Origin: Gammaproteobacteria bacterium
GTDB lineage: Bacteria; Pseudomonadota; Gammaproteobacteria; JACKNK01
DNA: 64,000 nucleotides
Assembly: GCA_024234955.1 (NCBI GenBank)
Contig: JACKNK010000001.1
Coordinates: 389,331 to 453,330, forward strand
Direction: 5' to 3'
Under the pieces are notes generated by a model that was not told where the DNA came from, searched no databases, and saw only the letters and a program-made list of their open reading frames with translations. Numbering within the stretch: position 1 is the first letter of the stretch; every line of letters begins with the position of its first letter. Positions 7,501-41,006 of the stretch are shown here, piece by piece. The position numbers and the translations under genes are program-made.

Positions 7501-8043
7501 ATGGGATCATCCCGAAAACTGGAAGACCTTACCGACGAGGTCGCCGCCAACGCCAAACGCGTCGTCGAAGTGCTTGATGGCGTCGGTATCGATCTGCTGA
7601 TCTATTGCACCCTTCGACCTCTCGAAGAACAGGCGCGCTTGTACCGCCAATCGCGCCCCTGGTCGAAGATCAAAAGCAAGATTCTCGACTTTCAGAATCG
7701 CGGTTACGGCTACCTCGGCGACGTCCTCGAACAAGTCGGTCCGTGCAGCGGCCCACATGTCACCAACGCCGCGCCCGGCGAATCCTGGCACAACTACGCC
7801 GAAGCCTGGGATGCGGTGCCATTGATCGGTGGCAAACCCGCCTGGAGCTATTTCGACGCCCGTCCGGAATGGGACGCCTACGGGGAATGTGTGCGCCAGG
7901 TCGGCATGGTATGGGCTGGCGACTGGACCAACTTCCGCGAATACCCACACGCGCAGAAACGTCCGGGCGGAAATCCGCTTCGGGAATCCGATCCCGACAC
8001 CATCCATGAAATCCTGGTCGGCAACGGCCTGCTCACCACCTGA
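7501..8043 (+). CDS. Peptidase M15-family (D-Ala-D-Ala carboxypeptidase or phage L-alanyl-D-glutamate endolysin-like) protein.
   Basis: ESWHNYAEAWDAV matches the M15 SxHxxGxAxD zinc-ligand motif (A replaces G). The protein is 180 aa with no signal peptide, typical of phage endolysins. Confidence 0.6.
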   Translation: MGSSRKLEDLTDEVAANAKRVVEVLDGVGIDLLIYCTLRPLEEQARLYRQSRPWSKIKSKILDFQNRGYGYLGDVLEQVGPCSGPHVTNAAPGESWHNYAEAWDAVPLIGGKPAWSYFDARPEWDAYGECVRQVGMVWAGDWTNFREYPHAQKRPGGNPLRESDPDTIHEILVGNGLLTT

Positions 8044-8060: not shown

Positions 8061-8855
8061 ATGTCTTTCTCTATCCCCTTGCTGGCCATGTTGCCCTCGA
8101 TCTTCTCGACGGTCGCCAAAGTGACCGATCTCTTCAACGCTGGCAAAAAGGTGGTCGAAACCGTTACCGGTGAACCGTCCAAGGCCTCGAACCCGACCGA
8201 ACTGCAGCAAGAAGTCACCCAGCTCCCACAAGCCAAACAGGCTCAATGGGCGGAGATCATGAGTCAGAAAATCGATCTCTATAAGGCCGAAACCGATCGC
8301 TTGGAAATCGAAGAGGGGCGGATCGACCGCAACATCACCAGCAAACTTACGCCGAAAGCCGCCAACGAAATCGCCATCATGCGTCAGACTACGCGCCCCT
8401 GGGCGGTGCGCATGATGGTGCATTACGTATTCTTTCCCTGGTATCTGATCGTCATCGATCTCGTTCAGGAACTCTTCAACCGCTGGATATTGAAGGGGCT
8501 GTTCCAGGCAGAACACGGCGTCGATGTGTTCAACACCTTCAACCACGTCTTCGGAACCGTGGTGCGTGGCGCGCAGGAAGCCAGCGAAACCAACGCCGCA
8601 GAAGCCATCCAGATACTGACTTCCGGCGCCACCACAATGAGTGCGATGTACATGGAGTCGGTTGGCTGGGCCACCGCCATCATCATCACTTACATGGGCC
8701 TGCGCGAATACAGCAAAGCCAAGGGCACCAGCGGCGACACCCCGAACCCAGGGATCGTGGCTGACCCCAGCAAGGATGTGATGGAGAGCGTGACCGGCGT
8801 ACTGGAAGGCAGCGCGGAACTGATCGCCAAGGTGCGGCGTGCCTTCGAGAAATGA
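8061..8855 (+). CDS. Putative holin-like membrane protein with 3 predicted TM segments.
   Basis: It lies 18 nt downstream of the M15 peptidase. There are three hydrophobic segments: an N-terminal one, VHYVFFPWYLIVIDLV, and WATAIIITYMGL. Long charged linkers sit between them. The architecture resembles 3-TM holins. This is an inference only. Confidence 0.4.
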   Translation: MSFSIPLLAMLPSIFSTVAKVTDLFNAGKKVVETVTGEPSKASNPTELQQEVTQLPQAKQAQWAEIMSQKIDLYKAETDRLEIEEGRIDRNITSKLTPKAANEIAIMRQTTRPWAVRMMVHYVFFPWYLIVIDLVQELFNRWILKGLFQAEHGVDVFNTFNHVFGTVVRGAQEASETNAAEAIQILTSGATTMSAMYMESVGWATAIIITYMGLREYSKAKGTSGDTPNPGIVADPSKDVMESVTGVLEGSAELIAKVRRAFEK

Positions 8856-9120: not shown

Positions 9121-10050
9121 ATGTCCCCAGTCCCTACTCCCCCTCCATCCGTTCCATTGAGCGGCGTATTTCTGGTCGTGCTCGGCTCGATCGCATTTTC
9201 CTCCAAGGCGATCATGATCAAGCTCGCCTACGCAGTCGGCGTTGATCTCGATGCCATCACGTTGATGACGTTACGGATGGGCTTCGCGCTGCCATTCTAT
9301 CTGGGCATGTTGTGGTGGCTGCGCGACGCGGATCATGCCCCACTGAGCAACGTGCAACGGCTGTTGTTGGTCGCGGTCGGCGTCTGTGGCTATTACCTGG
9401 CCAGCCTGTTCGACTTCTGGGGGCTTGAATATATAAGCGCCAGCCTTGAACGCCTGATTCTGTATCTCTATCCGACCTTGGTGATCCTCATATCGGCGGC
9501 GCTGGAGCGACGTCGGCCCCGGCGTGAACAGATTGTTGCGCTCACGATCAGCTATATCGGGATTGCACTGGTGGTCGCCAGCGACTTTGACAGTAGCAAT
9601 GACAAGATCGGGCTGGGCAGTCTTCTGGTCTTCGCCAGCGCCCTTTCCTACGCATTATTCCTGGTCGGCAATGGTCGACTGGTCGGTGTGCTGGGGTCGC
9701 GCCGGTTCACTGCCTGGAGCATGTTGATCGCCACCGCCGGGGTATTTCTGCATTTTGTCATTCGCGCCGATTTTTGCGCCCTGAATCAACCCATAGAGGT
9801 CTATGCCTGGGGCCTCGCTCTTGGCGTGATCTCCACGGTGGCAGCGTCATTCATGCTCAACGCAGGTCTGCACAGACTCGGCGCAGATACCACCGTCCTG
9901 CTGAGCATGGTCGGCCCGGTGTCCACACTGACGCTCGGCGCATTGGTCCTGGATGAGCACCTGCTGCCGGTGCAATGGCTCGGCGCTGCCCTGGTCCTGG
10001 CCGGCGTGGTGGTAACCGGTTATCCGATGTCGCGCCGCAACCGAACATAG
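9121..10050 (+). CDS. DMT-superfamily (EamA-like) transporter.
   Basis: About 10 TM segments, two EamA-like halves, 309 aa. Confidence 0.75.
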   Translation: MSPVPTPPPSVPLSGVFLVVLGSIAFSSKAIMIKLAYAVGVDLDAITLMTLRMGFALPFYLGMLWWLRDADHAPLSNVQRLLLVAVGVCGYYLASLFDFWGLEYISASLERLILYLYPTLVILISAALERRRPRREQIVALTISYIGIALVVASDFDSSNDKIGLGSLLVFASALSYALFLVGNGRLVGVLGSRRFTAWSMLIATAGVFLHFVIRADFCALNQPIEVYAWGLALGVISTVAASFMLNAGLHRLGADTTVLLSMVGPVSTLTLGALVLDEHLLPVQWLGAALVLAGVVVTGYPMSRRNRT

Positions 10051-10209
10051 CGGTGTTGACGCAAAAACAATCACCTGGGCGCGCGCATCGAACCGGCATT
10101 GGATGTCACGCCGCGTTCACGGATCTGACCCAGGCCTGTCACCTGTGCATCGCACGCTCTGGCGCAAATTCGGATCTGACTCATCAGATCCATTGCCGCA
10201 GCCGAGCGT

Positions 10210-12600
10210 ATGTCATCCGTACCCACCTTCGTCGACACGCCACCGCTTTCCCAGACGTCCTCGTGGGCATCGAAGCCCTTGCTGGCTTTCGCGCCTGCGC
10301 CTTCAACGGTTCAAACGGCGGATCGTGCGCTTCGTCTGCACGAGGCATTGATCGCCCTGGGACTGGATCGCCCTTGGCACAGCATCGATTTGCACGCCTT
10401 GCCGTTTGCACCGGGAGACATAACAGTCGGATCGGAAAGCGAATTGCAGACCGCAGTGATCGGGAGTGCGGACAAGGTTGATCTGCCGCGTCGCATTCTC
10501 GACTCCGATTACTTCGCCAATATTGCGGAACGTGCACAGCGTGCCGAATCCTCACCCCGCCCGGCGACTCGATTACAACGCTTCGTCGAGGAAAATCCGG
10601 AACAGGTCTGGGAGAACGCCTGGGTGCGCCTGCCTTGGGCGAGCCTCAATCCGCGTGCATGCCAGCTCTGGTCTCAGGACATGCTCCGCGACCGCGAGGA
10701 CCCAAGCAAAGGTCCCCGCAGCGATCGGGCACGGTTCCATTCGCTCGATGAGCACGGCGCGCTCTGGCTTCGGGTGCCGATCAGCTATCTGTTGAAACTC
10801 GCGCTCGCCCAACTGGCAGGCGATTACGCACCCCGATCGGCACACCGCGCCGAAACCGCCGAGCGCCTGATGGCGCATTTTCTGAACGACAACTCCTCGC
10901 CGGAGACGTTCTCCTTCCATGTCAGTGAGCCCGTCGGTCGGGACGGTTCGGTCGGCGAGGCGGTGGCCGTCGAAACGGGCAAACGCTTCCTGTTGACGCA
11001 ATGGTTGCTCGCCTATGCCGAACAGGCTTTCGCACTGGCCGCCCACGGCCAGCGTCCGCTGGCGTATTACTCGCCACACGCGCCGGTGCGATTGCACGAT
11101 CTGAACGATTCGGTCTCCGACAGCTTCTTCCGCGAACTGTTCCTGTCACCCTGTCTGTCCGGGTGGCGACATGGGGAGGAAAAACACCGCTATATGGCCT
11201 TGTGTCACACCGTCCTCAGTCGCAGCCAGTTGAACGGGCTTCAGGTATTGCGCGAGGCCGGCGTCATCGTCAACAACCTGGTGGTGATTCCGCGCACATC
11301 CAATCTCAGCCTGGCGAACAACGGCACCCACATCAGCCTTGGCAGTCGCCGTCTCAGCGCCCTGCTCGACGCCGGCTCGCCGGTTTTCCGGCCCGCCCAT
11401 GAAAAGGTCTTCGGTGATCTGGTCATCAAGGTCGTCGAACACTTCCTGCCCTTGTTCGTGGGCCTTTACTCGGCGGCGCCGTTCCGCCTCGACTACGCGG
11501 ACTTCCACCCCGAACGGGTACTCGGCTTCCTGCCCCACGAATTGCATGGCGCACACCTGCGCATGCTGTGGCGTAACTGGAAAGCCAAGGCGCGACTCAA
11601 TCTCATACCCGGCACGTCGTTGACACCGATGGGGCCGCAATGGCTCGATCGGACCATCGCCACCGTCTTGCGCAAGCGTGGCGACCGCGTTCCCGATTAC
11701 CGCTTGATCGATTATCTGGTCGCGCTTGCCAGTACTGACCGCAGCCCCGCTCTGGATGGCACACCCGGCAACCAGCAAAGCCTGCTCAACGATCTGGACG
11801 ATCTCGGGGTATTCGATCGCGGCATGTCGCTGTATCTCCCATTCAAACAGCGGGAACACGCGAAAATGGGGTTCAGCGGCTTCGAGGCGCGTTGGTTCAG
11901 TCTGTTCCCATCGTTGGACAGGGATCTGGCGAAGGCCGTCGACCTGCAGGTGCTGCTCACGGCCCTGGCGGTCAAACTGATCAGTCAGGGCCTCACCCAC
12001 GAGGACATCCCCGACACCCGGTTCTGCGAGAGCGAACGGCGGCAATTCTTGTTCGTGGCCGCCGCAGGACTGCGTTGCGGCTATGTGCAGCGAAACACCG
12101 ACCGACCTCAAAACCGTTTCCTTGATCGCCTGCTGGAGGACACTCGCCGTACCCGCCCGAGCCGTCTGTACCGTCACTACGCCAAGGTTTACCTGGACGA
12201 CTACCGTACCGGGTTGCTCCGCTTTATCGAACATGAAGCCGCCGACCTGATCGCCGCTTTCGATATGCAGGGTGTGATTGACGACCTGCACCAGCGCCTT
12301 ACTCATAGCGCCGACAGCGCCCTCGATCGGGAAATCTGTGCCGGGCTCGGAATCCATAATCCGCTGCGAGCGACCGGTCGCGAATACAACGCCCAGGCCG
12401 AGCGGCTCTATCGCGAGACCTTCCGTGAAAGGCATCGCGACGAAGCCATCCGGCATCTCGCTGACGAGATCGGCGACGCCGACCCCGACGCACAGACTTT
12501 ATTGCGCAACCCCGATCCGGCGTCCTTACCGGAACGCATCGGCCTGCTCCTCGACAGCCTGGCCCGGGATGCCATCCGAAACCGGAGCACCTCGGCATGA
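10210..12600 (+). CDS. Large hypothetical protein (796 aa) with no domain I recognise. It is the first gene of a coupled 3-gene operon.
   Basis: Long uninterrupted ORF. Its stop overlaps the start of the downstream PSD-like gene (12597-12600). The long antisense ORF 11146..12456 is read as a GC artefact. Confidence 0.55.
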   Translation: MSSVPTFVDTPPLSQTSSWASKPLLAFAPAPSTVQTADRALRLHEALIALGLDRPWHSIDLHALPFAPGDITVGSESELQTAVIGSADKVDLPRRILDSDYFANIAERAQRAESSPRPATRLQRFVEENPEQVWENAWVRLPWASLNPRACQLWSQDMLRDREDPSKGPRSDRARFHSLDEHGALWLRVPISYLLKLALAQLAGDYAPRSAHRAETAERLMAHFLNDNSSPETFSFHVSEPVGRDGSVGEAVAVETGKRFLLTQWLLAYAEQAFALAAHGQRPLAYYSPHAPVRLHDLNDSVSDSFFRELFLSPCLSGWRHGEEKHRYMALCHTVLSRSQLNGLQVLREAGVIVNNLVVIPRTSNLSLANNGTHISLGSRRLSALLDAGSPVFRPAHEKVFGDLVIKVVEHFLPLFVGLYSAAPFRLDYADFHPERVLGFLPHELHGAHLRMLWRNWKAKARLNLIPGTSLTPMGPQWLDRTIATVLRKRGDRVPDYRLIDYLVALASTDRSPALDGTPGNQQSLLNDLDDLGVFDRGMSLYLPFKQREHAKMGFSGFEARWFSLFPSLDRDLAKAVDLQVLLTALAVKLISQGLTHEDIPDTRFCESERRQFLFVAAAGLRCGYVQRNTDRPQNRFLDRLLEDTRRTRPSRLYRHYAKVYLDDYRTGLLRFIEHEAADLIAAFDMQGVIDDLHQRLTHSADSALDREICAGLGIHNPLRATGREYNAQAERLYRETFRERHRDEAIRHLADEIGDADPDAQTLLRNPDPASLPERIGLLLDSLARDAIRNRSTSA

Positions 12601-13649
12601 ATTCCGGCCAGCCCCTGGCGCCGAGTCCCGCGCCTCGAAACGCAACCCGTTCCCACCAATACATCGACCGACGGACCGGTCAGGTGCTCGACGAGCATCT
12701 CTATGCGGACCGGCTGATCCAGTTTCTGTACTCGACCGCGCGCGAACACAGCCCGAACGTGTTTCGGATGCTCACCGGACCGCGCATGTCCGGTCTGCTC
12801 GGCTATCTGAACTACGACCTGATGCTGGGCGCGCGCCTGACCGGCAATCAACGTTTCCTGCGCAAGCTCGGCATCGACCTGGGCGAATGTCTGGATGCGG
12901 CGCAACTGACGACCGCGCGCGCCATTTTCGAACGGCGCATCCGCTATTGGGATGTGCGCCCGATGCCGGTGGACAATCGCATCGTGGTCTCCCCCGCCGA
13001 TGCCCGGGTTCTGGTGGGATCGCTGAACCAGCATTCGCGCTTTTTCATCAAGGAGAAGTTCTTTCATTTCGAGGAATTGTTGGGGCCACACAAGCGGAAT
13101 TGGCTGGAAAGACTCTCCGGAGGCGAGTTCGCGGTGTTTCGCCTGACTCCAGACAAATACCACTACAACCACTGTCCCGTGTCCGGCCAGGTCGTCGATT
13201 TCTACACCGTGTCCGGCCGTCACCACGCTTGCAACCCCAACGCCGTGGTGCATATCGCGACGCCCTACAGCAAAAATGAACGTGTTGTCACGGTCATCGA
13301 CACCGATGTGCCCGGCGGCTCGCAGGTTGGCGTGGTCGCCATGATCGAGGTGGTCGCGCTGATGATCGGCCAGGTGGTACAGACGTACAGCGAACATGCT
13401 TACGAGCGTCCGGTAACGATGCGCCGGGGCCTGTTCCTGCGACGTGGACAACCCAAAAGCCTCTACCGCCCGGGCAGTTCCACCGACGTCTTACTATTTG
13501 AGCCAGACCGCATCCGGTTCGACGGCGATCTGCTCCGCAATCGCCTGCATCGCACCGCGACCAGCCGCTTCAGCCTGGGGTTCGCGGAGAATCTGGTCGA
13601 AACCGACATCGCCGTTCGCGCTTCGCTGGCACGTCGCCTCGGAGATTGA
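12597..13649 (+). CDS. psd: Phosphatidylserine decarboxylase-like pyruvoyl-dependent proenzyme.
   Basis: The C-terminal ...LYRPGSSTDVLLFE matches the PSD self-cleavage site (G-S-[ST] followed by hydrophobics). Size (350 aa) and overall pattern fit the PSD family. It could be the housekeeping Psd or a paralogue. Confidence 0.65.
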   Translation: MNSGQPLAPSPAPRNATRSHQYIDRRTGQVLDEHLYADRLIQFLYSTAREHSPNVFRMLTGPRMSGLLGYLNYDLMLGARLTGNQRFLRKLGIDLGECLDAAQLTTARAIFERRIRYWDVRPMPVDNRIVVSPADARVLVGSLNQHSRFFIKEKFFHFEELLGPHKRNWLERLSGGEFAVFRLTPDKYHYNHCPVSGQVVDFYTVSGRHHACNPNAVVHIATPYSKNERVVTVIDTDVPGGSQVGVVAMIEVVALMIGQVVQTYSEHAYERPVTMRRGLFLRRGQPKSLYRPGSSTDVLLFEPDRIRFDGDLLRNRLHRTATSRFSLGFAENLVETDIAVRASLARRLGD

Positions 13650-14794
13650 TCATGTTTTCGACATTCGCCCCGGAGATGCTGATCCTCGGCCTCAGTCTGC
13701 TGCTTGCACCCTATCTCCGCTGGGGTTTCACCACCCTGGTCGGCGAGCGTTGGCAATTCTTCGCCACCATCCCGACACATAAGGACGACGACGGACGCTG
13801 GCATGGCGTCAATCTGACCTTTTACGGACTGCTCTCGGCGAACGCCTATGTGGTCGCGTTGGCAATCTTCATATTGCTCTGCGGCAGCGCGGGCGTGTCG
13901 GCGCCAATCAGTCTGTTGACCCTGGCCTTGATGCTTCTGGTCTGCGTGCCCGCTTCGCGCTATGTCGCCTGGCTGGTGGAACGCAAATGGCACAGTTTTA
14001 CCGTTGGTGGCGCCTTCTTCGCCGGTGTCGTGGCGGCGCCTGCGGTGATCGCGATCGTCAATGGCGCGATCGGGTTCGGCAACATGTCAGCCGCTACGCC
14101 GGTTCCGGTTCTACCCACTCTGGCGGCGATGGCGATCGCCTATGCCTATGGCGAGGGCCTGGGGCGCTTGTCCTGCATCAGTTTCGGCTGCTGTTACGGA
14201 AAACCGGTCGATCAGGCGCCCGATTGGGTGGCGAGGCACTTCCAGCGCTGGAACTTCACCTTTTTTGGCAATACCCGAAAAGTCGCTTACGCAGGTGGAC
14301 TTCAAGGCGTGAAACTGATCCCCATCCAGGCCATTACCGCCCTGACTTACACCCTGATCGGGCTACTCTCTACCTGGCTCTATCTGCGCGGCATGATCAC
14401 TGCCGCCTTGTTCACGGCGCTGATCGTGACCCAGATCTGGCGATTCGCGTCGGAGATGTTGCGGGCCGATTATCGTGGCGATGGTCGTATTTCCGCATAT
14501 CAGATCATGGCGCTGGTCGCGATCGCGCTCACCGGCATTTATGCCCTGATGGCGCAGGAATCGAGCACGACATTTCGGGTTATCGATGGGTTATCGGCCC
14601 TCTGGAACCCAGCGGTGATTCTCAGTCTGCTGGCAGTCTGGGTTCTCATCTTCACCTACATGGGCCGTTCGACGATCACCGAAGCCACACTTCAGGTCCG
14701 GGTGCGCACCGATCAGGTGCGGATGCCGGCAACGATGGCGGCACCGACGCCGCGCCCCGTCAACGAGGTCGGATCGCCTTCGAAACCTTCCTGA
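13646..14794 (+). CDS. Polytopic membrane protein, prolipoprotein diacylglyceryl transferase (Lgt)-like.
   Basis: About 7-8 TM segments. HGVNLTFYGLL resembles the Lgt N-terminal HWYGLMY. GEGLGRLSCISFGCCYGKP resembles the Lgt signature G-R-[LI]-G-x-F-x-N-G-E-x-[WY]-G. Its start overlaps the stop of the PSD-like gene. Confidence 0.5.
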   Translation: MIMFSTFAPEMLILGLSLLLAPYLRWGFTTLVGERWQFFATIPTHKDDDGRWHGVNLTFYGLLSANAYVVALAIFILLCGSAGVSAPISLLTLALMLLVCVPASRYVAWLVERKWHSFTVGGAFFAGVVAAPAVIAIVNGAIGFGNMSAATPVPVLPTLAAMAIAYAYGEGLGRLSCISFGCCYGKPVDQAPDWVARHFQRWNFTFFGNTRKVAYAGGLQGVKLIPIQAITALTYTLIGLLSTWLYLRGMITAALFTALIVTQIWRFASEMLRADYRGDGRISAYQIMALVAIALTGIYALMAQESSTTFRVIDGLSALWNPAVILSLLAVWVLIFTYMGRSTITEATLQVRVRTDQVRMPATMAAPTPRPVNEVGSPSKPS

Positions 14795-14811
14795 AACCTG
14801 GCACGTTGACG

Positions 14812-15438
14812 TCAGGATTGCCGGTGCGATGTGCGCACCTCCGGCTCGTCCCGCACCCGGATGGGCGCCGACAACGCTCCTCGTAGGGCACGCAGGCGCA
14901 TGAAATCGGCGGGGACGGCCCGCACAGCGGGTACGCCATCCCGAGGCAAGGCGCCCAGCCGCTGGTAGGCCACCGCCACCAGTTCACTACAGAAGGTACC
15001 GGCTCGCGGCCCGGCCCAGCGCCGCTTAGGCCACCAATACGACAGCAGGTGACCGCGCAGATAGTTGCGATACGGTGCGTTGCGCAAGATCCGGATCATG
15101 GTTTCCAGCCGCTTGAGCCGCGCCTCCGAGATCAACGCGTAATCGATTCGCCGTATTGCCACGTCGCCCGGATACCGCGTGATCTTGTCCACCAACGGCA
15201 CCAGGGCCACGCCACGATGAATCTGGCCGCTGTCAACGTCCGCCACGTTGCTGAAGGTGGTCGCCTCCCAGATGAGGAGCCGGTCGGCCTGCAGGTCGTG
15301 AACCACCATACCGACATGGGACCAATGGCAATTAGTAAGAAATCGGATGCTGCGTGCGACCATTCCACGGCCTGAAAACAACACCAGATCGCCGGTTCTC
15401 AGTATCGGCAGCAAGGCCGTCAAGGAGGTCTCACGCAT
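14812..15438 (-). CDS. YiiX/YaeF-family permuted papain-fold (NlpC/P60-like) protein.
   Basis: LRTGDLVLFSGRGMVARSIRFLTNCHWSHVGMVV and a downstream FCSELVAVAY fit the permuted His...Cys arrangement. I chose the start at MRETSL (15438). The track ORF extends to 15600 with an Arg-rich, implausible N-terminus. Confidence 0.5.
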   Translation of the reverse strand: MRETSLTALLPILRTGDLVLFSGRGMVARSIRFLTNCHWSHVGMVVHDLQADRLLIWEATTFSNVADVDSGQIHRGVALVPLVDKITRYPGDVAIRRIDYALISEARLKRLETMIRILRNAPYRNYLRGHLLSYWWPKRRWAGPRAGTFCSELVAVAYQRLGALPRDGVPAVRAVPADFMRLRALRGALSAPIRVRDEPEVRTSHRQS

Positions 15439-15638
15439 CTTTCTTGGGCCGGAAACTGCGGTATGGATGCGCTGAATCACACCGCGTCGCCAGATCCGGA
15501 TGCGGAGCCGAGACGCCCACGCTCGAGAATGTCTGAATGTGCTACCGAGCACCATGCTGCGCATTGCGTCCATTGGTGTTTCGAAGACAGCGATTCTCAC
15601 TCGGCAGTGTGACAGCGATGTTCCGGAACTGAACCAGC

Positions 15639-17639
15639 TTACGCCAGGGCCAGACGGGCATCCTGTATCGCCTTGATCTGATCGCGAACCCGCGCGGCGT
15701 CTTCAAATTCGAGATTGCGGGCGTGGGTATACATCTGTTCTTCCAGCACCTTGAGCTGTTTCGCCAACGCCTCCGGCGTCAGCGCTGCGTACTTCCCGAT
15801 CTCCTCCGCCACCTTGGCCACCTTGCGTCCACCACCTTGCCCAAGCTGCATGACGTCGGCGACCGCCTTGGAAATGGTCTGGGGGGTGATTCCGTGCTGC
15901 TGGTTGTATTCGATCTGCTTGTTCCGCCGACGCTCGGTCTCGTCGAGGGCGCGACGCATCGAATTGGTCACACGATCGGCATAGAGAATCGCCTTGCCCC
16001 TTGCATTGCGGGCGGCGCGACCGATGGTCTGGATCAGCGAGCCTTCCGAACGCAGGAAGCCTTCCTTGTCTGCATCGAGAATCGCAACCAGAGATACTTC
16101 TGGAATATCAAGACCTTCTCGTAACAAGTTAATGCCAATTAATACATCAAATTCCCCCAGACGCAGATCACGGATGATCTCCATGCGTTCCACGGTTTCG
16201 ATGTCGGAATGCAGATACCGCACCCGCACGCCATGTTCGTCGAGGTAATCGGTCAGGTCTTCAGACATGCGTTTGGTCAGGGTCGTGACCAGCACCCGAT
16301 CGCCCATGCCGACCCGCGCCCGAATCTCGGACAGCAAGTCGTCCACCTGGCTGCCAACCGGACGGATCTCCGTCTCTGGATCGATCAGGCCGGTTGGGCG
16401 CACCACCTGTTCGATGACTTCATCGCCGGAGTGCTGCTTCTCATACGGCCCCGGAGTGGCCGATACATAGATGCGCTGCGGCGCCAGTTTCTCGAATTCA
16501 TCGAAGCGCAAGGGACGATTGTCGAGCGCGGAAGGCAGGCGAAAGCCGTATTCGACCAGAGTCTCCTTGCGGGAGCGATCGCCTTTGTACATGGCGCCGA
16601 TTTGCGGAACCGTGACGTGCGATTCATCGATCACCATCAGGGAATGGTCGGGCAGGTAGTCCAGCAGAGTTGGTGGGGATTCGCCTGGGGCGCGGCCGGA
16701 CAGATGTCGCGAGTAATTCTCGATGCCGTGACAGAATCCCAACTCAAGGATCATCTCCATATCGAATCGGGTTCGCTGTTCCAGACGTTGAGCCTCGACC
16801 AGCTTGTTGGCCGCATAAAGCTGCTCCAGCCGTTCCTTGAGTTCGAGCTTGATCGCATCGACGGCTTCGAGCAGCGTCTGCCTGGGCGTCACATAGTGGG
16901 TTTTCGGATAAATGGTCAGGCGCGCGACCTTGCGCAGCACCTCGCCGGTCAAGGGGTCGAAGAAGGCCAGGCTCTCGATCTCTTCGTCGAACAGTTCGAT
17001 GCGCACCGCCTCCTTGTCCGATTCTGCTGGATAGATGTCGATGATCTCGCCGCGCGCGCGATAGGTGCCGCGCTTCAATTCGGTCTCGTTGCGGGTGTAT
17101 TGCAACTCCGCCAGCCGCCTCAGGATCGCCCGCTGGTCGATGATGTCCCCGGTCTTCAGGTGCATCACCATGTTCAGATAGGCAACCGGATCGCCCAGGC
17201 CGTAGATCGCGGATACCGTGGCGACAATCACCGCGTCCGGACGTTCCAGCAAGGCACGGGTAGCGGAGAGACGCATCTGTTCGATGTGCTCGTTGGTGGA
17301 GGCGTCCTTCTCGATGAAAGTGTCGCTGGCAGGAACGTAGGCTTCCGGCTGGTAGTAGTCGTAATAGGAAACGAAATATTCGACCGCATTGTTCGGAAAG
17401 AACTCACGCAATTCGCCGTAAAGCTGGGCCGCAAGCGTCTTGTTTGGGGCCATGACGATGGTCGGGCGGCGCACTGACTCGATCACATTTGCGATGGTGA
17501 ATGTCTTTCCTGACCCGGTAACGCCCAATAACGTCTGATGGGCCAGTCCGGATTCGACGCCATCGATCAGCTGCGCAATCGCGGAGGGTTGATCACCTGC
17601 GGGGGCATAGGCGGATTCGAGCTGAAAAAAACGTGACAT
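15639..17639 (-). CDS. uvrB: Excinuclease ABC subunit B.
   Basis: Walker [11 protein letters not shown], a helicase-like DEAD region and a C-terminal UvrB/UvrC interaction helix. 666 aa. Confidence 0.95.
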
Positions 17640-39704: not shown

Positions 39705-41006
39705 TCAGGTACCGCTGAACATGTCACTCATGATGTTCGCGTACCAGCTCTGCGCGTAGATGGCTTCCATCTGATTATTGCCATCGGCCGGAGTCAGACC
39801 GCCAGAGCCCTTCACCTTGCCGATCTTTCCGTCGGCGGTGTAGTCATAAACCATCGCCACAGAAATGCCGTGGTTCGGGGTGACCAGGGAATAACAGGTG
39901 TTGACCCAAGCCGGGGTCCCGACATCACGACCATTCATCAGGTCAACGACGGCGGCGGCACAGACCTTGGCTTCCGAGTTCGCGGCATATCCGGACTTCG
40001 GCAGCGGAGAGGCGATGGAGGCGTCACCGATGACATGAATGTTCGGATGAATCGTGGACTCGAAAGTCTTGTGATCCACCGGACACCAACCGGAGTCGTC
40101 AACCAGACCGGCAACATGCGCAATGTGACCCGCCTTCTGCGCCGGGATGACGTTCAACACGTCCGCCTGATGTTCGCTGAATTCGGTGATGGCAACGCGC
40201 TTGTCAGCATCTACCGCCTTCACAGTGCCGTCGTTCGCCTTGGATACCCAGGTGATCATGCTGTCGTCAGTGCCGTAGCCGTAATGCTTGGTCCAACCAG
40301 CCGTGAACAGGCCCTGCTTCGAGAACTTGTCCTTGGAATCCAGGACCACGATCTTGGAATTCGGCTTGTGGTTCTTGAAGTAATTGGCGACCAGAGAGAT
40401 ACGTTCGTACGGCCCAGGGGGGCAGCGGAACGGGTTCGGCGGCGTCGCAATCACGAAGGTGCCGCCGTTGGGCATGGCTTCCAACTGAGCGCGCAGCAGC
40501 GAAGTCTGCGGGCCGGCCTTCCACGCATGCGGGACCTGCCAGGAAGCCTTCTCGTCGTAACCTTCAATGGTGTCGTAACGGAAGTCGATACCCGGCGACA
40601 CGACCAGACGGTCATAGCTCATGGTGCTGCCGCTGACCGTGGTCACGGTGCGCTTGGCCGCATCGATACCGGTGACGGTGTCATGAACGATATTTACGCC
40701 ATGCTTGGAAGCGAGGCCGTCATAGGTGTGTTCGATGAAACCGATGTCGTTCAAGCCACCGATGACGGTGTTGGAGAACGGACAGCTGTGGTAGGTACGG
40801 TTCTGCTCAATCAAGGTGACCTTGATCCCGGCATCTGCCATCCGGATGTACTTGGCCGCGATGGTGCCACCGTAGCCGCCACCGATCACGATGACGTGGC
40901 CGCCGCCGGCCGCCGCCTTCATCGGCATACCCATCAGACCCAAACCGGTCGCCGCGCCCGCAGCGCCGGCAACCTTGATAAATTCACGACGTTTCATGTT
41001 GGACAT
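39705..41006 (-). CDS. fccB: Flavocytochrome c sulfide dehydrogenase, FAD-binding subunit.
   Basis: Tat signal RREFIKVAGAAGAATGLGL. FAD-binding VIVIGGGYGGTIAAKY. Fcc/SQR-like fold. 433 aa. Confidence 0.85.
   Translation of the reverse strand: MSNMKRREFIKVAGAAGAATGLGLMGMPMKAAAGGGHVIVIGGGYGGTIAAKYIRMADAGIKVTLIEQNRTYHSCPFSNTVIGGLNDIGFIEHTYDGLASKHGVNIVHDTVTGIDAAKRTVTTVSGSTMSYDRLVVSPGIDFRYDTIEGYDEKASWQVPHAWKAGPQTSLLRAQLEAMPNGGTFVIATPPNPFRCPPGPYERISLVANYFKNHKPNSKIVVLDSKDKFSKQGLFTAGWTKHYGYGTDDSMITWVSKANDGTVKAVDADKRVAITEFSEHQADVLNVIPAQKAGHIAHVAGLVDDSGWCPVDHKTFESTIHPNIHVIGDASIASPLPKSGYAANSEAKVCAAAVVDLMNGRDVGTPAWVNTCYSLVTPNHGISVAMVYDYTADGKIGKVKGSGGLTPADGNNQMEAIYAQSWYANIMSDMFSGT

Follow-up and report, generated by a model that had tools for sequence, protein, structure and literature searches.

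A Pho-linked three-gene operon with Psd-like and Lgt-like members, conserved across bacterial phyla: a tentative membrane lipid head-group pathway

The genes described here as A, B and C form an operon whose members are co-inherited across bacterial phyla, a conclusion that is well supported. They were analysed in a 64-kb stretch of gammaproteobacterial DNA, the whole of which is called the window in the following. As a conserved operon tied to phosphate-starvation genes it probably makes an unknown membrane lipid, and it is read here, tentatively, as a lipid head-group pathway that is linked to the Pho regulon and separate from the housekeeping psd and lgt functions. The literature searched contained no account of these genes as a set. 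The features of the operon are listed in Table 1.

Table 1. Positions in the window of the three genes, their conserved motifs and the upstream repeat array.
Feature	Position	Strand	Remarks
CTGTCAT-like heptamer array, 11-bp phased	10103..10153	+	Candidate PhoB (Pho-box) operator, 57-107 nt upstream of A
Gene A	10210..12600	+	796 aa; soluble protein of a widespread new family
A motif G74-S-E76-S-E78-L-Q80	10429..10449	+	G, E, E and Q invariant; matches GIELEMQ of E. coli YbdK
A motif N370-N-G-T-H374-I-S-L-G378	11317..11343	+	Matches HVHVG of YbdK
A motif FLPLFVGLYSAAPF	11443..11484	+	Paired by hhalign with YbdK FVPHFIALSAASPY; hhalign probability not significant
ATGA overlap, A stop and B start	12597..12600	+	Translational coupling
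Gene B	12597..13649	+	350 aa; pyruvoyl proenzyme of the phosphatidylserine decarboxylase (PSD) family
B Asp135	12999..13001	+	Equivalent to E. coli PSD D90; kept in at least 97% of 68 orthologues
B H189-Y-N-H192	13161..13172	+	Equivalent to E. coli PSD H144 and H147; H189 and H192 at least 97% conserved
B G293-S294-S295-T296	13473..13484	+	Predicted self-cleavage site; G-S-S in at least 97% of 68 orthologues
Gene C	13646..14794	+	382 aa from TTG; Lgt-fold integral membrane protein, ~9 TM helices
C motif G171-R172-L-S-C175-I-S-F-G-C180-C181-Y-G183 (GRLSCISFGCCYG)	14162..14200	+	Altered Lgt signature motif
C motif R264-x3-E268-x2-R271-x-D273	14441..14470	+	Invariant in 20 members; pattern fit to Lgt R239/E243/R246/D249

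Operon architecture and conservation

Three open reading frames of 796, 350 and 382 aa lie on the same strand, where a preliminary description of this DNA had placed them. That description had also reported an overlap at both gene junctions. The A/B overlap stands and is identical, at 4 nt, in loci L087 and L088, while the B/C overlap (13646-13649) holds only if C starts at its TTG codon. The start candidates for C are TTG 13646, ATG 13652 and ATG 13676 (the NCBI call, M11). The second is preferred; it is preceded by GGAG at 13641-13644, lies 2 nt past the stop of B and is the counterpart of the codon at which C is called to begin in the close relatives L087 and L088. The spacing of B and C is at most 26 nt whichever of the three starts applies, and translational coupling of A, B and C is well supported. 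A scan of positions 9900-15700 for sigma-70 promoters and terminators yielded none above chance level. Clusters of opposite-strand 'shadow' open reading frames across A, B and C were dropped as artefacts of ORF calling.

Among 75 non-redundant species-level loci, A is present in all, B in 70 and C in 68. The comparison with other genomes that had been proposed at the outset shows the triad order to recur across phyla, A-B-C being preserved in approximately 70 of the 75 loci, which span Desulfobacterota, Nitrospirota, Acidobacteriota, NC10 and Gammaproteobacteria. The carriers include relatives of Geobacter, syntrophs and sulfate reducers; Trichlorobacter lovleyi SZ, Geobacter pickeringii and Desulfatibacillum alkenivorans are carriers that can be cultivated. 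The operon occurs in at least 350 species. A was confirmed in 352 of 600 sampled pattern matches drawn among 185,579 species genomes, a lower bound for its spread. With more than 2,710 database homologues, and with 880 clusters at 50% identity, A is not the orphan that it had been taken for. At three loci (L047, L081 and L083) it stands without an adjacent B or C and may therefore also act alone. A second psd or lgt was found neither in the 64-kb window nor in 1.1 Mb of related loci.

The three encoded proteins

That B is a pyruvoyl decarboxylase of the PSD type, complete in its catalytic residues, is well supported. PF02666 matches residues 110-307 with 127.3 bits (gathering score 22), and B aligns with E. 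coli PSD 7cnw at 1e-9. By alignment, the E. coli triad of D90, H147 and S254 has its counterparts in D135, H189/H192 and G293-S294 of B. The G-S-S-T autocleavage site noted in the preliminary description is present, and S294 would be the precursor of the pyruvoyl group. B belongs to the same family as Psd (PF02666; E. coli 6l06, 7cnw) and shares with it the D-H-S triad as well as the Gly-Ser self-cleavage site; it also possesses the N-terminal region typical of long PSDs and is about 30% identical to the E. coli PSD core. Unlike Psd, it is encoded between A and C, and its scores reach none of the NCBIfam psd/asd equivalog cutoffs (NF001941, the best psd equivalog, 123 bits with a cutoff of 371; TIGR00163, 85 bits with a cutoff of 111.75).

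C has the Lgt fold, with a PF01790 match above the gathering score, and is annotated by NCBI as 'prolipoprotein diacylglyceryl transferase'. Its score against NF000778, the housekeeping lgt equivalog, is 33, the cutoff being 334. Lgt (PF01790; E. coli 5azb, 5azc) is 17% identical to C, which differs from it by one additional TM helix at either end and a conserved C-terminal tail. A search of the PDB with a C-family profile did not find Lgt (5azb), tblastn with E. coli Lgt gave no match to C or to any related locus, and global hhalign and Smith-Waterman comparisons of C with E. coli Lgt gave no usable alignment beyond the signature motif. The GRL..GCCYG motif reported for C in the preliminary description is confirmed as an altered form of the Lgt signature G142-R-L-G-N-F-I-N-G-E-L-W-G154. 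The equivalents of G142, R143, G150 and G154 are retained, whereas N146 is changed to C, N149 to F and E151 to C, all of these changes being invariant; C has four invariant cysteines in total, C98, C175, C180 and C181. H103 of Lgt (HGGL) is also lost, and hhalign sets Ala124 (consensus Val) opposite to it. In E. coli Lgt, the E151A/Q mutants and all H103 mutants are inactive (PMC4728403). Retention in C of the signature-motif Arg that binds diacylglyceryl/phosphate in Lgt is well supported at the level of the motif. The second invariant motif of C was mapped to its putative Lgt equivalents by eye, the Smith-Waterman alignment not being significant.

The loops of C are reversed in charge relative to Lgt. 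In 20 of 20 members of the C family the active-site side carries 13-22 Lys and Arg residues and the opposite side 0-2, compared with 5 and 13, respectively, in E. coli Lgt. From the positive-inside rule, the active site of C is predicted to face the cytoplasm, inverted relative to that of periplasmic Lgt, which would make an exported prolipoprotein an unlikely acceptor.

A had been described as having no recognisable domain, and database searches agree. Neither the single sequence nor a 24-member profile gave a significant match in Pfam, NCBIfam or the PDB; the Pfam families GCS2, Pup_ligase, Glu_cys_ligase and Gln-synt_C gave no match at E<=1 in the 24 A-family members; and a model of A found no match in the PDB with Foldseek. 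When 1.84 billion representatives were searched with an HMM of the A family, the best 150 matches listed were all members of the family or fragments of them, and none linked it to a known family. A lone weak match to NifB (E 0.15) was taken as noise.

On the basis of its motifs A is a candidate carboxylate-amine ligase with a fold of the GS/GCL/GCS2/PafA type. The metal/ATP-site motifs (a GxExE strand, a His strand and the following helix) are ordered in A as in YbdK: GSESELQ, HISLG and FLPLFVGLYSAAPF are collinear with GIELEMQ, HVHVG and FVPHFIALSAASPY of YbdK and invariant across the A family. The hhalign pairing of A with YbdK, whose probability is itself not significant, carries weight because the motifs are collinear. 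The stretch N370-G378 also resembles the NGxGxH motif of glutamine synthetase. A differs from GCS2/YbdK, GshA, PafA/Dop and glutamine synthetase in showing neither sequence-profile similarity nor a Foldseek match to them, in having approximately 180 additional residues within the catalytic domain, and in a helical C-terminal region of approximately 230 aa. YbdK is half the size of A, and the second His of HxH is Ser in A. By analogy with Dop, A could be an amidase instead of a ligase.

Phosphate-starvation context

At least one gene for Pi transport or PhoU (pst/phoU/PHO4) is located within 8 kb of the triad in 21 of the 75 loci, and at least two different ones in 8 of them; the identities of these Pho neighbours were confirmed by Pfam. 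Locus L023 has the arrangement A-B-C-pstSCAB-phoU on a single strand, and L062, L075 and L082 are other Pho-linked examples. The neighbours of the triad also include phoBR genes and, in some loci, PsiE, alkaline phosphatase, Ppx/CHAD and Zn-dependent phospholipase C. A GT4 protein of approximately 810 aa adjoins the triad in 20 of the 75 loci and the Zn-dependent phospholipase C in 6. The 64-kb window itself has neither pst nor pho genes.

Pho-box-like repeats precede the operon in gammaproteobacterial genomes, including this window. In a scan of the window for single Pho boxes, the site upstream of A scored 10/14 and was one of 30 sites with at least 10/14, so that a single Pho box at this position is unconvincing alone. 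The weight lies only on the phased array and its conservation. The array is composed of the heptamers ATGTCAC, CGTTCAC, CTGACCC, CTGTCAC and GCATCGC, and its four-unit phased score of 19/28 was the joint highest of approximately 128,000 window positions in a test devised post hoc. In L087, a relative with 76% identity, the heptamers of the array are kept and the spacers have diverged. Stronger phased arrays were found upstream of A in L009, L015, L035 and L067, with 12/14 matches in L009 and L015. Regions upstream of A outscore other intergenic regions of the same loci (Mann-Whitney p=3.7e-5) in a post hoc test which, like all of the Pho-box scoring, assumes a PhoB specificity that may not be that of these taxa.

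Proposed pathway and alternatives

The early suggestion of a co-conserved module, as opposed to housekeeping psd and lgt with a chance neighbour, is borne out by the A-B-C order across phyla, the low equivalog scores and the absence of essential Lgt residues from C. As to its function, the phosphate context and the predicted cytoplasm-facing C favour a lipid head-group pathway over lipoprotein modification. The operon would encode a pathway of three steps that works on a membrane glycerolipid's head group on the cytoplasmic side of the inner membrane, and PhoB probably activates the operon under phosphate scarcity. In the scheme that follows each enzyme is assigned the usual chemistry of its family; the sequence of steps, the acceptor and also the product are conjectural. 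C would move diacylglyceryl from a phospholipid (e.g. phosphatidylglycerol) to a small nucleophile, for which the thiol of cysteine or of a cysteine-containing compound is the most plausible choice, and the phosphorylated head group would be freed inside the cell, where its phosphate could be reused. B would then decarboxylate the amino acid now attached to the lipid, in the manner of PSD acting on phosphatidylserine. Finally A would use ATP to couple the amine thus formed to a carboxylate, for which the gamma-carboxyl of glutamate is the most likely candidate. A zwitterionic lipid without phosphorus, possibly an aminolipid, would be the product. The thiol acceptor is suggested by analogy with Lgt and GCL only, and the literature searched offered no precedent for a reaction that passes diacylglyceryl directly from a phospholipid on to a small acceptor. 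The specific combination of thiol, decarboxylation and glutamylation chemistry, in which a flipped C, B and a GS-fold A capping with glutamate would give a thioether-linked aminolipid, is quite unlikely to be correct as it stands.

Bacteria of phosphate-poor sediments, soils and aquifers swap phospholipids for phosphorus-free lipids, and we know of no biosynthetic genes for many environmental polar lipids. The known remodelling systems are those for PlcP-Agt glycolipids, the BtaAB betaine lipid and the OlsBA/OlsF ornithine lipid (PMC12971839, PMC5193443). They have in common with A-B-C the Pho-regulon context and the expected outcome that lipid phosphorus is spared or recycled, and in some loci A-B-C also has a phospholipase C and a GT4 glycosyltransferase nearby, as known systems do; none of the three has a PSD-like, Lgt-like or GS-fold enzyme. 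If A-B-C is a remodelling pathway, it represents a fourth enzymatic logic besides the glycolipid, betaine-lipid and ornithine-lipid routes, provides a function for the large unannotated protein family of A, and re-uses a re-oriented Lgt fold on another substrate. To our knowledge, the Lgt fold is known to date only from lipoprotein maturation. Lgt is pursued as an antibiotic target.

It is possible, though unlikely, that the module decorates an existing phospholipid and that its product contains phosphorus and shifts the membrane charge under stress. B, which resembles full-length PSD over residues 21-317 (NF001941), would convert a phospholipid of the serine type into phosphatidylethanolamine or a comparable amine lipid, A would amidate the amine, e.g. 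by gamma-glutamylation, and C would move diacylglyceryl between lipids. Gamma-glutamylation of amines, ethanolamine and putrescine among them, is known for GS-family enzymes, and L087 has a gene for a CDP-alcohol phosphatidyltransferase upstream. However, such a decoration does not explain why pst/phoU/PHO4, phospholipase C and glycosyltransferase genes recur beside the triad, and it leaves the Lgt-fold enzyme without a clear role.

The Pho context also fits a catabolic set for phosphate scavenging, in which C, with water as its acceptor, would hydrolyse phosphatidylglycerol to diacylglycerol and glycerol phosphate, the amino head groups, whether released or left behind, would be handled by B and A (e.g. 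by decarboxylation and then gamma-glutamylation of ethanolamine), and the glycosyltransferases next door would turn the diacylglycerol into glycolipids. Slow hydrolysis of phosphatidylglycerol to diacylglycerol was observed in Lgt crystals (PMC4728403), and the GT4 and phospholipase C neighbours counted above are in line with such a set. We consider it decidedly improbable, as PSD-type enzymes use amino acids bound to lipid and not free ones, a single product is suggested by the strictness with which the three enzymes are inherited together, and neither this window nor most of the loci contain a GT4 gene.

There is very little likelihood of an alternative protein lipidation, in which C would put diacylglycerol on a protein Cys, a PafA/Dop-like A would ligate or remove a peptide tag, and B would mature the bound residue. 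No fourth gene that might encode the substrate protein or a tag resembling Pup is conserved with the triad. H103 and E151 are missing from C, whose predicted cytoplasmic orientation would keep it apart from exported lipoproteins, and no protein substrate is known for a PSD-like enzyme.

The idea of ordinary housekeeping psd and lgt beside an unrelated large gene can draw on the Pfam domains of B and C, the NCBI label of C and the lack of another psd or lgt in the 64-kb window, but is largely refuted by the order kept across phyla, by scores far under the equivalog cutoffs, by the failure of E. coli Lgt to hit C in tblastn and the loss of its essential residues, and by the limited spread of A, confirmed in 352 of the 600 sampled matches among 185,579 species genomes (at least 352 genomes), whereas psd and lgt are near-universal in these bacteria. 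The automatic labels 'prolipoprotein diacylglyceryl transferase' and 'phosphatidylserine decarboxylase' on the C and B genes, respectively, are probably wrong.

Arrangement and conservation of the gene set

Three genes on one strand, encoding a putative ligase (A), a phosphatidylserine decarboxylase (PSD)-like enzyme (B) and a membrane protein with the fold of prolipoprotein diacylglyceryl transferase (Lgt) (C), were found at exactly the coordinates of the preliminary description and are listed below with neighbouring features. That description had overlaps at both junctions. The A/B overlap stands, as ATGA at 12597-12600 is common to the stop of A and the start of B, while the B/C overlap holds only with the TTG start of C. 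An alternative start, ATG 13652, lies 2 nt past the stop of B and is preceded by GGAG at 13641-13644; such an ATG-type start just after the B stop is called in both closest relatives (loci L087 and L088), and the NCBI annotation places the start at Met11. Whichever start is used, the spacing is too tight for separate promoters. Scanning of positions 9900-15700, gene interiors included, gave no promoter-like sites and no terminator-like sites above chance level.

Features of the window in and around the triad, with a second phased repeat site
Feature	Coordinates	Strand	Remarks
Peptidase_M15_4 gene	7501-8043	+	D-Ala-D-Ala carboxypeptidase-like
264-aa gene	8061-8855	+	no Pfam or NCBIfam match; 18 nt after the Peptidase_M15_4 gene
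EamA/DMT-family transporter gene	9121-10050	+	between the preceding pair and A
Candidate Pho-box array	10103-10146		ATGTCAC-n4-CGTTCAC-n4-CTGACCC-n4-CTGTCAC; upstream of A
A	10210-12600	+	796 aa
B	12597-13649	+	350 aa
C	13646-14794	+	382 aa, counted from the TTG start
Peptidase_C92 gene	14812-15600	-	weak match; permuted papain, YiiX/YaeF-like; convergent with C
Phased CTGTCAT site	40228-40271	+	sole other window site with an equal four-unit score (19/28)

A species-level scan (one genome per species, 600 pattern matches sampled) gave at least 352 species genomes encoding a relative of A among the 600 matches listed. Hosts are Desulfobacterota (Geobacterales, Desulfuromonadales, Syntrophales, Syntrophobacterales, Desulfobacterales, Desulfobulbales), Nitrospirota, Nitrospinota, Acidobacteriota, NC10, Victivallales and several gammaproteobacterial MAGs. 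Synteny, proposed in the preliminary description as a check, was compared in 75 non-redundant loci, drawn from the best 80 and those gathered earlier, and the triad proved co-conserved: B follows A in 70/75 loci and C follows in 68/75, nearly always in the order A-B-C. Three loci (L047, L081, L083) carry A without adjoining B or C, and in L019 the set is broken by a 5.6-kb insert. A gene for a DksA/TraR-type C4 zinc finger lies between B and C in three loci of Desulfobacterota (L052, L072 and L075, in the last at 11480-11908).

Predicted functions of the three proteins

Pfam PS_Dcarbxylase matches B at 127 bits, and the G-S-S-T site previously reported for B was confirmed in the sequence. In the alignment with the solved E. 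coli PSD, Asp135 corresponds to D90, His189/His192 to H144/H147, and Gly293-Ser294 to the cleavage site G253-S254. Because, among 68 orthologues, 97% or more keep these catalytic and cleavage residues, B very likely functions as a pyruvoyl decarboxylase. Its score falls far below all NCBIfam psd equivalog cutoffs (best 123 vs 371); judged by these profiles, B is a PSD family member of a type other than the housekeeping enzyme.

Three invariant motifs of A are collinear with those of the E. coli carboxylate-amine ligase YbdK, the sequence of which was checked against 1r8g: GSESELQ with GIELEMQ, HISLG with HVHVG, and FLPLFVGLYSAAPF with FVPHFIALSAASPY, the last being the top hhalign segment. A is therefore read as a predicted, very divergent ATP-dependent amide ligase. 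The fold assignment derives from a moderate model and a single search method, with the collinear motifs as independent sequence support. Relative to YbdK, A is twice as large, with a further helical region at the C terminus; a possible alternative role is that of a Dop-like amidase.

The GRL..GCCYG-type motif noted earlier in C was recovered as GRLSCISFGCCYG. C has one helix more than Lgt at either end. Sidedness was assessed from the helices of the structural model of C and the known sidedness of Lgt loops. In 20/20 members of the C family, 13-22 Lys+Arg lie on the active-site side and 0-2 opposite, the reverse of E. coli Lgt (5 vs 13), and a nine-helix N-out/C-in topology agrees with the positive-inside rule throughout. 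On this large and uniform charge bias, C is predicted to be inverted in the membrane relative to Lgt, with its catalytic face cytoplasmic. C98, C175, C180 and C181 (numbered from ATG 13652) are invariant in 20/20 aligned members and could form a metal site or disulphide; three of the four sit where the Lgt signature motif has polar residues. R264/E268/R271 were matched to Lgt residues by eye and are putative equivalents.

Phosphate starvation and a proposed lipid pathway

At least one gene for PstS, PstC/A, PstB, PhoU or a PHO4/PitA transporter lies within 8 kb of the triad in 21/75 loci, and two or more in 8/75; by chance, well under 1% of random genes would lie this near to the single pst operon of a roughly 4-Mb genome. 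Gene orders include A-B-C-pstS-pstC-pstA-pstB-phoU on the same strand (L023), pstSCAB and a PhoR-type kinase followed by A-B-C (L062), phoB-pstSCAB-phoU divergent from A-B-C (L075), and A-B-C downstream of phoB-phoR-pstB-phoU (L082). Further neighbours are PsiE, alkaline phosphatase, Ppx/CHAD, Zn-dependent phospholipase C, DUF2062, an alpha/beta hydrolase and, in 20/75 loci (e.g. L032:2779-5214), an adjoining protein of about 810 aa with a C-terminal GT4 glycosyltransferase domain and an N-terminal part of about 430 aa. These recurring neighbours point to phosphate starvation and are strong evidence for a Pho link at the family level; they are absent from the gammaproteobacterial loci, the window included.

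The gammaproteobacterial loci, again with the window, carry phased direct repeats 5' of A that resemble Pho boxes (PhoB operators, heptamers like CTGTCAT phased at 11 bp). L009 has six heptamers spaced 11 bp, among them CTGTCATGACACGGTCAC (12/14 consensus positions), and L015, L035 and L067 have similar arrays. The window array has the joint-best four-unit score of about 128,000 positions, and its heptamers are kept in L087 while spacers and flanks have diverged. Across loci, regions upstream of A outscore other intergenic regions (p=3.7e-5, in a test devised post hoc). Since the Pho-box tests were designed after the pattern had been seen, the evidence for the candidate array is rated as suggestive. 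In four Trichlorobacter loci (L001, L011, L012, L013) a palindrome, GTGACAG-n3-4-CTGTCAC, lies 80-160 nt upstream of A in place of direct repeats, which suggests that this genus has an additional or different regulator.

It is well supported that the three enzymes, probably all acting at the cytoplasmic face, are co-inherited and tied to the phosphate-starvation response. The general reading, in which A-B-C encodes a pathway for lipid head groups that is linked to the Pho response and separate from psd and lgt, is held at about even confidence. In the usual Lgt reaction a thiol receives the diacylglyceryl group from phosphatidylglycerol and glycerol phosphate is freed; PSD removes the carboxyl of a lipid-bound alpha-amino acid, and ligases of the GS/GCL type use the gamma-carboxyl of glutamate to acylate an amine. 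If each family's usual reaction is assigned to its member, C would join the diacylglyceryl group of a phospholipid to cysteine or a comparable thiol, giving S-diacylglyceryl-cysteine, B would decarboxylate this to S-diacylglyceryl-cysteamine, and A would form the gamma-glutamyl amide. The final lipid would be zwitterionic and phosphorus-free, the phosphate-bearing head group being freed intracellularly. This specific sequence of thiol transfer, decarboxylation and amide formation, drawn by analogy, is unlikely to be right in every step; a small-molecule acceptor, new to the Lgt fold, would fit the lost head-group filter residues, the invariant cysteines and the inverted topology of C. Rival explanations are that A-B-C decorates an existing phospholipid, that it is a catabolic phosphate-scavenging set with C a hydrolase, or that it is a protein-lipidation system. 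B and C as housekeeping psd and lgt are essentially excluded.

The superfamilies of the parts and the biological theme are already known; not known from before are A-B-C as a set, the family of ligases to which A is assigned, and an Lgt fold that is apparently flipped, as in C. A full-text literature search found no paper linking the three genes, and the recent reviews of phosphorus-free lipids examined mention neither a decarboxylase nor Lgt.

Other genes near the triad

The Peptidase_M15_4 and 264-aa genes also lie upstream of the triad in L087, from a Chromatiales MAG (85% and 74% identity). The EamA/DMT transporter is missing from the position 5' of A in L087 and every other locus, and is therefore probably a local insertion outside the module. 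Homologues of the Peptidase_C92 gene (66-69% identity), which may encode an accessory lipid or peptide hydrolase, adjoin the triad in L087 and lie about 4 kb off in L088. The N-terminal part of the GT4 protein opens with a PHP-like DLHVHSxxS...ITDHN (by eye; no Pfam match), and in L081 this protein directly follows A, B and C being missing. Two further uncharacterised families recur near the triad in Geobacterales: one of about 735 aa in nine loci (e.g. L011:11322-13529), which lacks a Pfam match and whose N-terminus resembles a signal peptide, and one of about 250 aa (L027:6835-7587 and eight others), with a sub-threshold DUF3108 match.
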